64,000 bases of DNA from Escherichia phage T2, in the sequence record NC_054931.1; one strand, given 5' to 3'. Positions 19,800 to 27,783 of this stretch are shown in pieces. The translations under genes were made by a program, and so were the position numbers. The notes beneath the pieces are model-generated. The model saw nothing but the letters and a program-made list of their open reading frames with translations. It made no database searches and was not told the origin of the DNA. Numbering within the stretch: position 1 is the first letter of the stretch; each line of letters opens with the position of its first letter.

Positions 19800-20300
19800 T
19801 TATTCCATTTCTATTATATGCATGCTCTTTTTGCTATCAAAATATATGTTTTTAACTGTTAACTCCGAATTAATTGGCAATAAAAACTCTCTTTCATAAT
19901 CCACCATACAAAGATTATCATAAAGCTTATTAAGCTTATTATCATCAGTCTGGCTAGATTCTTCAATTGCGATTAAATTTTCTAAAATTTCAATCATAGC
20001 AGTTGAATAGTCAAAAACGTTTGCATTTTTTAACACTATTAAAACATTAGTCATATAGCGTTCTGCTGCAAATGTTTCAGCTATATGAGATTCACTACTA
20101 AAGGAAGTTATTCTTTTAAATTTGATTCTCCTATTAACTTCAAACTTATAAGATAGTACTTCCTCTATTGTAAGTCCTCTAAAAAGTACGTCTTTAATCT
20201 CAAGTTTGTCTTTAATGTAATCATTAACACGCTTATGATTAAAATCATTAATTTTGTTGCCAAGGCATTTCATTAAAATATGCATTGTGTTTCTCTTCAA
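19800..20300 (-). CDS. Hypothetical protein with R / S-x-S / E-x-E motif order (candidate mono-ADP-ribosyltransferase-like)
   Basis: 166-aa ORF (first codon TTG; ATG start MHILMK 5 codons in); motifs VLFRG, TSFSSES, YEREFLL. Confidence 0.3.
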   Translation of the reverse strand: MKRNTMHILMKCLGNKINDFNHKRVNDYIKDKLEIKDVLFRGLTIEEVLSYKFEVNRRIKFKRITSFSSESHIAETFAAERYMTNVLIVLKNANVFDYSTAMIEILENLIAIEESSQTDDNKLNKLYDNLCMVDYEREFLLPINSELTVKNIYFDSKKSMHIIEME

Positions 20301-20412: not shown

Positions 20413-21426
20413 TCATTTATAATAACTTCGGTGGTTTTCAAGATAAACCTTCTCAAGGAAGTCATCCCAGAAACCCATGTCTACTTTTTGCTGCATACCG
20501 TTCTTAGAAGCTTCAGTAGATGCTGCTTCTACTTGATCGACCACATCTTCCAAAAACTCTTGAACCGTTTTAAATGGATGTTTACCCAACTTCACGTCGA
20601 GAATAAATGGAGCGTCTTGAAGTGGATAAACCAAGTCACCAGTTTTGTAAATTTCCAATAGTTGAAGTCCACCACGACAAGCATGGCTCAGAGCTTTCCA
20701 GTCAATGCCTTCGTTGGCTTCGGCCTTACGGGCACGTTCACCATATTCAGCATCTAATTTGTTCAGTGACTGCTTAAGCTCAATAAGAGAAAGCGTTGTC
20801 TGATATTTACGACCCAATACAGTGTAGAACGTTTGTGGGCCTGTTTTCTCATGATTATGGAACACCCATTCACAGAATTCGTTTTCTGGAAGACGATGCT
20901 TAATATCTTCAACTTTAGTACGACGCTGCTTAATAGAACCATCTTCTTGGTAATCAACCCATTGCTCGGGGATTTGATTAACTACTTTCAATACATCACG
21001 TAATGCAGCCAAACGAGAACCCTTGACACCGTATTTAGAAGCTTGCTTACGGACATATCCTAAATATGATTTCATGTTAGTCGTATAAAAACGAGAACGG
21101 TTGTCTTGAATAAACTTCCACACATCAGGCAAATCAGATTTAACCACTAGTTCAGGTTGAGTGTGAAGCATATCTAACGCTACAGTTTCACCATCTGCTG
21201 CTAATTTAAAGAAATATTTAAGACTGTATAGTTCATGGTCAATATCATCTTTAGTGTTTTTAGATGATGTGTTGTTAGTGTTTTTGCTCATGTGCTCTTT
21301 GACATTTCCGATAAGAATATCGCGAGCAGGAGGAACAAAAATTTCTTTAAAATCTACATCAGATTCTGGGGTAGAAGTTCCATAAAGATGACTACCAAAA
21401 TAGCTTTTCATTACTGTTTTCATCAT
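20413..21426 (-). CDS. Nucleotidyltransferase-fold protein (Pol-beta superfamily signature)
   Basis: 337-aa ORF with N-terminal FGSHLYGTSTPESDVDF (G-S ... D-x-D signature). Confidence 0.5.
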   Translation of the reverse strand: MMKTVMKSYFGSHLYGTSTPESDVDFKEIFVPPARDILIGNVKEHMSKNTNNTSSKNTKDDIDHELYSLKYFFKLAADGETVALDMLHTQPELVVKSDLPDVWKFIQDNRSRFYTTNMKSYLGYVRKQASKYGVKGSRLAALRDVLKVVNQIPEQWVDYQEDGSIKQRRTKVEDIKHRLPENEFCEWVFHNHEKTGPQTFYTVLGRKYQTTLSLIELKQSLNKLDAEYGERARKAEANEGIDWKALSHACRGGLQLLEIYKTGDLVYPLQDAPFILDVKLGKHPFKTVQEFLEDVVDQVEAASTEASKNGMQQKVDMGFWDDFLEKVYLENHRSYYK

Positions 21427-24901: not shown

Positions 24902-25483
24902 CTAACCGAGCTTTTTAGTTAATTCATTCCAATGTTTTCTACACAAAGAAACATAAATTTCATCACCAATACAGATTTGATTACCTTCTTTAACTGGTGT
25001 TCCATCTTCCATTAATCGAGCTGTCATAATCGCTTTTTTACCGCAATGACAAACTGCCTTTAGTTCAATAAGTTTATCTGCAATCGCTAAAAGTTCTTTA
25101 GAACCTTCAAACAATTTTCCAGCGAAATCAGTCCTTAATCCATAAGCCATAACAGGAACATTATATGTATCAACAATTCGGCTCAATTGATGCACCTGTT
25201 CAGTTTTTAAAAACTGAGCTTCATCTACAAATACGCAATGAATATCTTTTTGTGCTTCAGCCCATTTATAGAACTCGAAAATATCCATATCATCTGTAAT
25301 AATATTCGCTTCCTGCTTAATTCCAATGCGAGAAACGACTTCACAGACAGAATCGCGAGTATCAATAGCAGGCTTAAGAACTAATACACTCATTCCACGT
25401 TCTTTATAATTATGTGCAGCAGTCAAAAGAGAAGCAGATTTTCCAGCATTCATTGCTGCATAAGTAAAAATTAAACTCGCCAT
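24902..25483 (-). CDS. tk: Thymidine kinase
   Basis: 193-aa ORF with P-loop AAMNAGKS and C-terminal zinc-binding Cys pairs (CHCGKK ... CRKHW). Confidence 0.9.
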   Translation of the reverse strand: MASLIFTYAAMNAGKSASLLTAAHNYKERGMSVLVLKPAIDTRDSVCEVVSRIGIKQEANIITDDMDIFEFYKWAEAQKDIHCVFVDEAQFLKTEQVHQLSRIVDTYNVPVMAYGLRTDFAGKLFEGSKELLAIADKLIELKAVCHCGKKAIMTARLMEDGTPVKEGNQICIGDEIYVSLCRKHWNELTKKLG

Positions 25484-25673: not shown

Positions 25674-25855
25674 AAGGAATTTATATAATTAATAAGTTCT
25701 TGTTCTTTATTATCGAATTCTTTAGAAAGTTCTTCGTACTCGTTTGCGCTAAAAGGACCGCATTCATTACAAACTTTTTCCAATTCACTATTTTTATCCA
25801 TAACTTCGTGGATAAGAGAAAAGAGTTTGTCTTTTTGTTCTTTGCTTAAACTCAT
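25670..25855 (-). CDS. Hypothetical acidic protein
   Basis: 61-aa ORF. Confidence 0.4.
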   Translation of the reverse strand: MSLSKEQKDKLFSLIHEVMDKNSELEKVCNECGPFSANEYEELSKEFDNKEQELINYINSL

Positions 25856-26021
25856 ATATTAATTTCCAGAAGTTTTAAAATAATTCGCTTTTGCTTAAAT
25901 ATTTCCACAGTTAAATGATCAGTATCTTTTTGACCAATTCCAATGGCAAAACCTTTATTAACAGCGAGTTCAATTAAATTATCAAGTTCACGTAACACTT
26001 CATATTGTAACTCAGAACTAT

Positions 26022-26234
26022 TCATTTCGGTTTACCTTCTTTAACGAAATCTGGATAAGGATAAAATCCCGAATAAAATCCTTCACCTTTATGATTGATG
26101 CATCCTTTATTAGAACAATAGCACCAATAATCGAAATCACAAACCATTTCATCGTTGCATAAAGCAAAAACAACCGGCCATTTACACTTTTCGCAGTGGG
26201 CATTTTTAAGAATACTAGTTTGGCTCATAACCAT
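26022..26234 (-). CDS. Hypothetical Cys-rich small protein
   Basis: 70-aa ORF with multiple Cys (CEKCKW...CNDEMVCDFDYWCYCSNKGCINH). Confidence 0.4.
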   Translation of the reverse strand: MVMSQTSILKNAHCEKCKWPVVFALCNDEMVCDFDYWCYCSNKGCINHKGEGFYSGFYPYPDFVKEGKPK

Positions 26235-26452
26235 GTCACCTTTAAGCAGTATTCTTCTACATGCTGTTTACGACCTTTCTTATCAATAAAGGTATATTCA
26301 ACGAATGTTCCAATGTAGTCTTTATCTACATCATGTGGACTATTAATTGGGCATTTAGTACGACAAATGCGTTCCCATTGACGAATAATTACTGCCTTAT
26401 TATTTGGGTCATATGGATGTGGATAATGTATATTCATAATAATGGTTCCCAA
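26225..26452 (-). CDS. Hypothetical protein
   Basis: 75-aa ORF. Confidence 0.4.
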   Translation of the reverse strand: MGTIIMNIHYPHPYDPNNKAVIIRQWERICRTKCPINSPHDVDKDYIGTFVEYTFIDKKGRKQHVEEYCLKVTWL

Positions 26453-26901
26453 TCAACAATCACAATTTCTAATTTAGAGGAATATGTATCTAAAATCCCC
26501 TCAATAATATCCCAGTTCCCTTTACCTATGCCTGCGCCAATCCTAGGCATATAGATTGTAGGTTTAATCAGTTTATTTTCACCAAACTCATTTAATTCTA
26601 ACATACAATTCATTAAAGCGGAATACTCAAAATTTGGCCCTGGTTGAAATTGAGTATAAAGATTAAAGCAGTAAGCTTTATGAGTCCTAAAGTATTTTTC
26701 ATAGACTGAGTAAGAACCGAGTTTAGTTACATCACCCCATTCAGTCTGTAATTTATCAGCTTCCAAAATTTTAGGGAAAGCTTTGGTTAATTGACCCGCT
26801 ACGCCTGAACCCATAGTATGAAAACAATTACATCCATGCGCAATATTTTTACCTTCAGCGAAAAGGGCGACAATATCGCCCTTGATATATTTTACAATCA
26901 T
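26434..26901 (-). CDS. Macro-domain-like protein (candidate ADP-ribose-binding/hydrolase)
   Basis: 155-aa ORF; N-terminal IKGDIV and Gly-rich HGCNCFHTMGSGVAGQL resemble the macro-domain GDIT/GGGV motifs. Confidence 0.4.
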   Translation of the reverse strand: MIVKYIKGDIVALFAEGKNIAHGCNCFHTMGSGVAGQLTKAFPKILEADKLQTEWGDVTKLGSYSVYEKYFRTHKAYCFNLYTQFQPGPNFEYSALMNCMLELNEFGENKLIKPTIYMPRIGAGIGKGNWDIIEGILDTYSSKLEIVIVDWEPLL

Positions 26902-27245
26902 CTAGTACTCAATCCTCGATTATAAGAATCTACCAAACGGTCAACCATTGAATGACAAGCGGCTTTATCTTTCTCCTCCGCAACTGAACATTCTAAGGTA
27001 TTCCACTTTTTAGCATATCGTTTTAATAATGTATCGTTTTTGTATCTGCTTGATTTATCTCTTTCTCCGTCTTTATATGCATATATTAATTTCTGAGCAA
27101 ATTCCGCCTGGCATGCTTTATTTTTCCCACAATAATCTGCCGCAGTGCGGTTTACATATTCTCTAATTTCAGTATATGATGTATCTGCTGACGCAGAAGC
27201 AGAAAATGAAATTAATCCTATACATAAAACCAAAATTTTAGTCAT
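26898..27245 (-). CDS. Hypothetical secreted/periplasmic protein
   Basis: 115-aa ORF with signal-peptide-like N-terminus MTKILVLCIGLISFSASASA. Confidence 0.5.
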   Translation of the reverse strand: MTKILVLCIGLISFSASASADTSYTEIREYVNRTAADYCGKNKACQAEFAQKLIYAYKDGERDKSSRYKNDTLLKRYAKKWNTLECSVAEEKDKAACHSMVDRLVDSYNRGLSTR

Positions 27246-27783
27246 TTACTATTTCCAAAAGTTTATTATTTTTAAGGTAATTAGCCTTTTCTAGGACTTC
27301 AGAAGCATATTTAGAACCTGCTTTAACATTCCATCCCGAATTATAAGAGGATATTGCTTTTCTTATATCGCCCTTATGTATATTTAACCAATAAGAAAGT
27401 TCAATGTACGCCCAGGAAGCTGAATTGGATCGTTTATTCAACATTCTTTTTATTTCAGCATCGGTCATATTATAACCAAGTTCCTTAACTCTTGCTCGCA
27501 TAGTAGGCAAATAATTTTGGAACATTCCGTAGGCGTGATGATTTGGTTTAGATTTTAAATTAACTCCGCCAGAGCTTTCTTGCCATAAAATGGCTGCCAT
27601 TATATGACCTAATCCGCTCTTGTGGATGTTTTTGTGTGTTTTATATTTTCCATCCTTAGAAAATTGTTCCCCGAATTGATACGCGTAACGCATGTTATCG
27701 AGTTGGACATTACTGAAAGTATGCTCGGAGCTATGTGCCATCATTGAAATGGCCAATAGACCAGCGAGTAGTGCTTTTCTCAT
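27238..27783 (-). CDS. Lytic transglycosylase-like (SLT domain) protein with signal peptide
   Basis: 181-aa ORF; N-terminal MRKALLAGLLAISMMAHS; SLT catalytic-region motifs AAILWQESSGG and YGMFQ. Confidence 0.6.
   Translation of the reverse strand: MRKALLAGLLAISMMAHSSEHTFSNVQLDNMRYAYQFGEQFSKDGKYKTHKNIHKSGLGHIMAAILWQESSGGVNLKSKPNHHAYGMFQNYLPTMRARVKELGYNMTDAEIKRMLNKRSNSASWAYIELSYWLNIHKGDIRKAISSYNSGWNVKAGSKYASEVLEKANYLKNNKLLEIVND

Follow-up and report, generated by a model that had tools for sequence, protein, structure and literature searches.

The tk.4 locus of phage T2

Within the window considered here, i.e., the whole stretch of 64,000 nucleotides from Escherichia phage T2 (NC_054931.1) that was analyzed, the open reading frame (ORF) at 26434 to 26901 on the minus strand is a real gene, the T2 ortholog of tk.4 (adfM) of phage T4. 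Its coding sequence starts with ATG and specifies a stand-alone macro domain protein of 155 amino acids (∼17.5 kDa). The ORF lies where the initial annotation, made from the letters of the DNA, had placed it, and translation put the motifs named there at their expected positions. Between 26000 and 27400, the window matched phage T2 with 100% identity. The T2 and T4 proteins are identical (155/155 amino acids), and the two genes agree at 465 of 468 nucleotides, with all three differences being silent. Tk.4 was already known: the domain is a long-standing entry in T4 annotation, and a 2025 preprint described a counter-defense role for the identical protein. We hold, with a probability of roughly 0.8, that T2 tk.4/adfM counters the host toxin DarT2 on replicating phage DNA by removing ADP-ribose from thymidine. 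The present analysis refines this picture at the active site, which appears from alignments to be of the glutamine type, like that of SCO6735, and not of the lysine type found in DarG, TARG1, and PhiKZ gp104.

The genes of this part of the minus strand are tightly packed in the order regB, vs.1, vs, tk.4, tk.3, several small ORFs, and tk. According to the sequence and its translation, the stop codon of vs and the start codon of tk.4 overlap in an ATGA (26898 to 26901, minus strand), which is annotated likewise in T4, while the stop codon of tk.4 and the start codon of tk.3 share a second ATGA (26434 to 26437, minus strand), again the same in T4. The first of these overlaps is read here as probable translational coupling of tk.4 to vs. 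In T4, tk.4 occupies the same slot between vs and tk.3 and was formerly named ORF 60.5, in the "58.3 to 65.5 kb early region." The initial annotation had put the ORF next to tk, which is loose as to distance, since tk itself (24902 to 25483) lies ∼950 bp from tk.4 with five small ORFs intervening, but fits the T4 name of the gene.

Macro fold and class of Tk.4

Several lines of evidence revealed that Tk.4 is a macro domain protein, with a resemblance far beyond chance. The protein matched the Pfam Macro family (PF01661) with 27.7 bits (E value of 2.9e-6), above the gathering cutoff of 22 bits, and the match covered 112 of the 118 profile positions. A single-sequence search of solved structures retrieved BT1257 (E value of 1.3e-9), Poa1p, SCO6735, DarG, and TARG1, and a profile built from 105 homologs, which reached down to ∼33% identity, matched solved macrodomains with E values from 1.5e-19 to 5e-14. 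Moreover, the AlphaFold2 model built on the 105-homolog alignment had a predicted local distance difference test (pLDDT) score of 96.0 and a predicted template modeling (pTM) score of 0.91, and a Foldseek search with this model returned TARG1, Poa1p, BT1257, and DarG with a probability of 1.00, with TARG1 at the top (E value of 6e-10). The model has the three-layer alpha/beta/alpha fold with a mixed beta-sheet that characterizes the macro domain superfamily. The macro domain call of the initial annotation, which had been based on motifs, is thus upheld by the family, profile, and structural comparisons, and the fold comparison that it had proposed gave a macro-like result.

The nearest relatives of Tk.4 in both sequence and structure (TARG1, DarG, Poa1p, SCO6735, and BT1257) are members of the ALC1/TARG1-like class, and the protein is clearly apart from the MacroD, viral, and PARG types. 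On the basis of the Pfam, solved-structure, profile, and AlphaFold2 evidence, Tk.4 therefore belongs to the ALC1/TARG1-like macrodomain class. Homologs of Tk.4 were found in 2,749 phage records, and the gene is named "macro domain protein," "Poa1p-like," or "phosphatase" in many phage records.

Motifs and residues of the predicted ADP-ribose pocket

The IKGDIV motif (residues 6 to 11; 26869 to 26886, minus strand; by translation) lies at the end of strand beta1 and supplies the "GD" motif at the entrance to the predicted ADP-ribose pocket; it aligns with the "VKGD" of TARG1, Poa1p, and BT1257. G8 is present in 100 of the 105 homologs, and residue 9 is always D or N. The stretch HGCNCFHTMGSGVAGQL (residues 22 to 38; 26788 to 26838, minus strand; by translation), which reads H22-G-C-N25-C...M30-G31-S-G33-V-A35-G-Q-L, is the predicted first ADP-ribose-binding loop. 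In the alignment, its N25...G31-S-G33-V34 part coincides with the loop that first contacts ADP-ribose in the sequences of TARG1, DarG, and SCO6735, and N25 (104/105 homologs) falls on N27 of SCO6735 and on the active-site asparagine conserved in DarG; G33 and A35 are invariant (105/105). Both stretches had been singled out in the initial annotation for their likeness to macro domain signatures, and the alignments show that they do correspond to these signatures, namely, the "GD" motif near the N terminus and the first of the ADP-ribose-binding loops.

A second glycine-rich stretch, absent from the initial annotation, is PRIGAGIGKGNW (residues 119 to 130; 26512 to 26547, minus strand; by translation), the predicted diphosphate-binding loop, with the pattern P119-R-I-G122-A-G124-I-G126-K-G128-N-W130. 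P119, I121, G122, and G124 are present in 105/105 homologs, with G122 and G124 corresponding in the alignment to G126 and G128 of SCO6735, while G126 stands at the position of TARG1 D125 and Poa1p F152. Two glycine-rich loops together with an asparagine, as expected of macro domains, are therefore found in Tk.4 in the form of N25...G31-S-G33-V and G122-A-G124-I-G126-K-G128, which are invariant or nearly so across the family (n = 105), and binding of ADP-ribose through these two loops is predicted.

The residue that sets the type of the active site lies in N80-L-Y82-T83-Q84 (26650 to 26664, minus strand), a strand and loop delineated by conservation and alignments. Q84 and Y82 are found in all 105 homologs, N80 in 104, and T83 in 103. 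Q84 sits at the position of the catalytic lysine, which is K84 in TARG1 (profile alignment), a lysine in PhiKZ gp104 (hhalign), and K80 in DarG (hmmalign), and it aligns with Q85 of SCO6735 and the corresponding glutamine of BT1257 (hmmalign). Near the catalytic position hmmalign shifts PhiKZ gp104 by one or two residues, and hhalign was used for that residue.

Probable role of Tk.4 in resistance to DarTG2

The DarTG2 toxin-antitoxin defense has DarT2 as its toxin, which ADP-ribosylates thymidine in single-stranded DNA and thereby blocks replication (PMC13309987, PMC11825919, and PMC9411070). In a HIDEN-SEQ screen of T4 transposon mutants on a DarTG2-expressing host, tk.4 was the sole significant hit, and a clean T4 knockout of tk.4 was DarTG2 sensitive; the gene was named adfM, for anti-DarT factor Macrodomain; on plain Escherichia coli K-12, tk.4 was dispensable for T4 (bioRxiv 10.1101/2025.11.20.689424). 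As to the enzymatic removal of ADP-ribose from DNA, the authors of that study go no further than "seems likely" (bioRxiv 10.1101/2025.11.20.689424). For T2, the wild-type phage is DarTG2 resistant, and both T2 and T4 remained resistant without the NADAR factor adfN, and the authors predicted a further factor (PMC11825919). In T2-infected cells, the Tk.4 protein was detected and the tk.4 mRNA was found to pair with the host small RNA ArcZ in a RIL-seq/proteomics preprint (bioRxiv 10.64898/2026.06.19.733364). The label "putative thymidine kinase" that tk.4 bears in the same preprint is a mislabel.

These reports bear on two suggestions of the initial annotation. Protection against an ADP-ribosylating defense, which it had proposed as a check, is documented by the literature, in that T4 without the identical tk.4 is DarTG2 sensitive (bioRxiv 10.1101/2025.11.20.689424). 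Between an eraser and a reader of ADP-ribose, both of which had been envisaged, the eraser role is the best-supported function of Tk.4, with the hydrolase chemistry deduced from its relatives. The experimentally supported "writer" is the host enzyme DarT2 and not a phage enzyme. T2 thus carries the T4 anti-DarTG2 factor unchanged, consistent with its reported DarTG2 resistance.

According to the mechanism that we favor, DarT2 of the host would attach ADP-ribose to thymidine in phage single-stranded DNA, and Tk.4 would bind this ADP-ribose through its two glycine-rich loops and hydrolyze the ribose-thymine bond, by which normal DNA would be restored and replicating phage DNA protected. A precedent for the chemistry is SCO6735, which has Gln85 at the lysine position, removes thymidine-linked ADP-ribose from DNA, and confers protection against DarT; its Q85A variant is inactive, its N27S variant has almost no activity left, a substantial part of the activity is lost upon mutation of G128, and a water-mediated mechanism in which the glutamine positions the distal ribose has been proposed (PMC9411070). 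Because N25, Q84, and G124 of Tk.4 map onto these catalytic residues, we infer that Tk.4 acts enzymatically on thymidine-ADP-ribose DNA by the same glutamine-type mechanism, in which N25 would hold Q84, Q84 would position the distal ribose, and the bond would be broken in a water-mediated step.

Several points weigh against this interpretation. In the literature searched, neither T4 nor T2 Tk.4 has been assayed biochemically on ADP-ribosylated DNA, and the genetic evidence comes from one preprint, which used T4 and not T2 to measure the phenotype. Q84 is assigned to the active site by way of alignments. In addition, the DNA-binding lysines of SCO6735, K34 and K89, are not kept in Tk.4, which has S32 and a Q84 loop without lysine, and Tk.4 is mildly acidic (isoelectric point [pI] of 5.9) compared with the basic SCO6735 construct (pI of 9.7).

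Alternative functions

Tk.4 may not be confined to one substrate. In addition to thymidine-ADP-ribose DNA, its substrates could include ester-linked protein ADP-ribose, ADP-ribose-linked RNA (from ModB-type RNAylation or from the ADP-ribosyltransferase [ART]-like protein of T2), or ADP-ribose-1''-phosphate (ADPR-1''-P) from RES-type NADases. This extension is raised because SCO6735 and TARG1 are dual DNA/protein erasers, which de-modify proteins as well (PMC9411070), and because Tk.4 has Poa1p-like pocket residues; we regard it as unlikely. If it were true, one small early protein would disarm several host defenses and also edit phage-made marks.

Protection without catalysis, either by Tk.4 binding and blocking DarT2 or by its shielding ADP-ribosylated sites as a reader, is improbable in our judgment. 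Tk.4 is without the catalytic lysine and aspartate of TARG1, and the macrodomain of ALC1, a noncatalytic reader, also has glutamine at the Q84 position in the alignment. Moreover, the catalytically dead variants SCO6735 Q85A, DarG K80A, and TARG1 K84A inhibit DarT in vitro by interaction (PMC9411070). However, Tk.4 retains both N25 (104/105) and Q84 (105/105), the pair needed for SCO6735 catalysis, whereas ALC1 has aspartate at the N25 position. At 155 amino acids, Tk.4 is also devoid of the C-terminal DarT-binding domain of DarG, and its match to the DarG model spans only positions 2 to 146 of 338. Furthermore, pocket residues that stay so constant between distantly related phages would be expected of an enzyme rather than of a protein that binds a single toxin.

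It is similarly doubtful that Tk.4 is chiefly a small-molecule enzyme, namely, an ADP-ribose-1''-phosphate phosphatase of the Poa1p/Adpp kind that clears ADPR-1''-P arising from RES-type NADase defenses or from RNA-repair chemistry. The idea is in keeping with existing labels, in that the matching phage family PHROG_335 (E value of 1.3e-65) is called "phosphatase" and the T4 RefSeq note reads "contains A1pp phosphatase motif," but this label goes back to a former name for the domain and not to any assay, and its widespread use for tk.4 in the genomes of phages probably misleads. By both sequence and structure, Poa1p ranks among the best matches to Tk.4, and the H22-G-C-N-C of Tk.4 parallels the H23-S-C-N-C of Poa1p, whose H23 was mutated in Poa1p structures. 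Among the Poa1p pocket residues H23, S30, and F152, the first is matched by H22 of Tk.4, while the other two face T29 and G126. Poa1p differs in having a serine after the conserved threonine, at the position of the invariant Q84, as well as an insertion of ∼25 residues, and its F152 is replaced by Gly or Ala in the Tk.4 family.

A phage precedent for such an enzyme exists in Adpp of Vibrio phage Gary, a Poa1p-type macrodomain that converts ADPR-1P to ADPR (bioRxiv 10.64898/2026.01.28.702374). Yet Adpp acts within the NARP1 operon, together with Adps and Namat, and none of these lies near tk.4 in T2 or T4, where the neighbors are vs, vs.1, regB, and tk.1 to tk.3. When the N-terminal 96 amino acids of Poa1p were searched against the phage collection by tblastn, Vibrio phage Gary was not among the 60 records listed, and the comparison with Adpp was made via Poa1p. 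Loss of DarTG2 resistance is the sole phenotype on record for the identical protein of T4, and DarT2 modifies DNA and makes no ADPR-1P.

The initial annotation had further combined Tk.4 with an ART-like ORF at 19.8 kb into a phage-encoded pair of writer and eraser. This ORF (19800 to 20285, minus strand) encodes 161 amino acids from its ATG, matches PHROG_832, "RNA polymerase ADP-ribosylase" (E value of 1.8e-23), and carries motifs in the order of R-S-E transferases (F-R35-G, S61-x-S, and E131-x-E). Considering also its 26 to 31% identity to modA/modB-type genes of related phages, it appears to be a remote ModA/ModB-like paralog; searches gave no Pfam hit and no meaningful sequence match to solved structures. 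It is present in T2 and ∼40 close relatives and is found in 227 phage records. A search of the T4 region from 44 to 62.5 kb, which contains the syntenic slot flanked by nrdC.10 and nrdC.11, gave no match to it. Directly downstream of the ORF in T2, the nrdC.11 ortholog (20413 to 21426, minus strand) matches the Pfam family RlaP, "RNA repair pathway DNA polymerase beta family" (E value of 2.9e-10).

With this ART-like protein encoded in T2, and with SCO6735 and TARG1 de-modifying proteins too (PMC9411070), it is chemically conceivable that Tk.4 has a dual role and erases the ADP-ribosylation laid down by this ORF or by Alt, ModA, or ModB, tuning or recycling protein or RNA marks. The proposed pairing is not supported, and we consider such a function very improbable: T4 keeps an identical Tk.4, yet the ART-like ORF is unmatched in the searched T4 region (44 to 62.5 kb), the ORF occurs in 227 phage records versus 2,749 for Tk.4 homologs, and the two genes lie 6.5 kb apart, not in one cluster, with more than 20 genes between them. 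Alt, ModA, and ModB are arginine specific, which counts against this function, as macrodomains of the TARG1 class release ADP-ribose from ester linkages (Glu/Asp) or from thymidine but not from arginine; the arginine-specific macrodomains (MavL type) form another branch. In addition, T4 did not need tk.4 on plain E. coli K-12 (bioRxiv 10.1101/2025.11.20.689424).

Neighboring genes and other features

Upstream of tk.4, vs (26898 to 27245, minus strand), the valyl-tRNA synthetase modifier gene to which tk.4 seems to be translationally coupled, encodes a protein identical to that of T4 (115/115 amino acids), and in minimal medium no T4 gene was depleted more strongly than vs (HIDEN-SEQ; bioRxiv 10.1101/2025.11.20.689424). 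The next gene, vs.1 (27238 to 27783, minus strand), is annotated merely as hypothetical in T2 and T4; after a hydrophobic N terminus, its product has a Pfam SLT lytic transglycosylase domain (E value of 1.8e-5). On the other side, tk.3 (26225 to 26437, minus strand), an annotated coding sequence of the T2 record with apparent translational coupling to tk.4 in both T2 and T4, belongs to Pfam DUF7202, a family of unknown function (E value of 8.9e-38).

Between tk.2 and tk.3, two small ORFs encode 57 amino acids (25852 to 26025, minus strand) and 70 amino acids (26022 to 26234, minus strand). Neither gave a tblastn match in the corresponding T4 region, and they therefore represent a T2 insertion relative to T4. 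The 70-amino-acid product is rich in cysteine (CEKC...C...C..C...C.NH) and resembles a small zinc-binding protein.

Opposite the 5' end of tk.4, a terminator-like hairpin (26863 to 26883, plus strand) has an 8-bp stem with five GC pairs and a T-rich tail. Such terminator-like sites numbered 5 per 5 kb compared with 2.1 ± 1.3 in shuffled sequences, and this hairpin may be a chance occurrence. A scan for sigma-70 promoters between 24.5 and 29.5 kb yielded 23 promoter-like sites versus 19.5 ± 5.7 in shuffled sequences and was uninformative on the timing of expression.

Comparison with known macrodomains

Among the characterized proteins, SCO6735 of Streptomyces coelicolor and BT1257 of Bacteroides thetaiotaomicron resemble Tk.4 in being stand-alone proteins of ∼150 amino acids with H-x-C-N, glutamine at the position of TARG1 K84 and DarG K80, and P-R-I-G-x-G. 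They differ from it in overall sequence (∼26 to 29% identity) and in having "GQ" in place of the "TQ" of Tk.4, and they are cellular proteins, whereas Tk.4 is encoded by a phage counter-defense gene. The mobile loop that follows the glutamine is longer in SCO6735 and carries K89, while that of Tk.4 is shorter and without lysine, and SCO6735 K34 is replaced by S32. Among the features of the SCO6735 type, the Gln-Asn pair and the diphosphate-loop glycine (G124, corresponding to G128) are therefore present in Tk.4, but the basic residues and the extended mobile loop are not. Human TARG1 (OARD1) is of the same class, and its K84/D125 dyad corresponds to Q84/G126 in Tk.4; TARG1 is reported to remove thymidine-linked ADP-ribose from DNA (PMC8501950).

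DarG, the antitoxin partner, has 19 to 23% sequence identity to Tk.4. The structurally characterized DarG proteins (Mycobacterium tuberculosis, 5M3I; Thermus aquaticus, 5M31 and 5M3E) have the catalytic Lys80, where Tk.4 and its family have glutamine (105/105), and DarG has a C-terminal DarT-binding domain and an adjacent darT, in contrast to Tk.4, which is without both and is flanked by vs and tk.3. Tk.4 scored 30.3 bits against the NCBIfam DarG equivalog (NF048014), with the match spanning model positions 2 to 146 of 338, compared with an equivalog cutoff of 250 bits. Membership of Tk.4 in DarG was rejected, given that the PADLOC and NCBIfam DarG matches span the macro domain only and are far below the family cutoff. 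Considering the difference between the glutamine and lysine types, mechanistic inferences and the design of inhibitors or mutants should not be passed from DarG to Tk.4.

Another phage macrodomain that counters DarTG2 is PhiKZ gp104, also named AdfM, a stand-alone protein that removes DarT2-made ADP-ribose from DNA in vitro and whose N23A variant has reduced activity (PMC13309987). PhiKZ gp104 is DarG-like (E value of 9e-25 to M. tuberculosis DarG) and retains the lysine, whereas Tk.4 is of the glutamine type. Pairwise BLAST between Tk.4 and PhiKZ gp104 gave a match of 23 residues (E value of 0.005), and a profile comparison (hhalign) was required to relate the two. T-even AdfM and PhiKZ AdfM are thus different subfamilies under one name. 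With the former being of the glutamine type and the latter of the lysine type, phages therefore seem to have recruited two distinct macrodomain lineages against DarT2, and the sequence comparison suggests that they did so independently.

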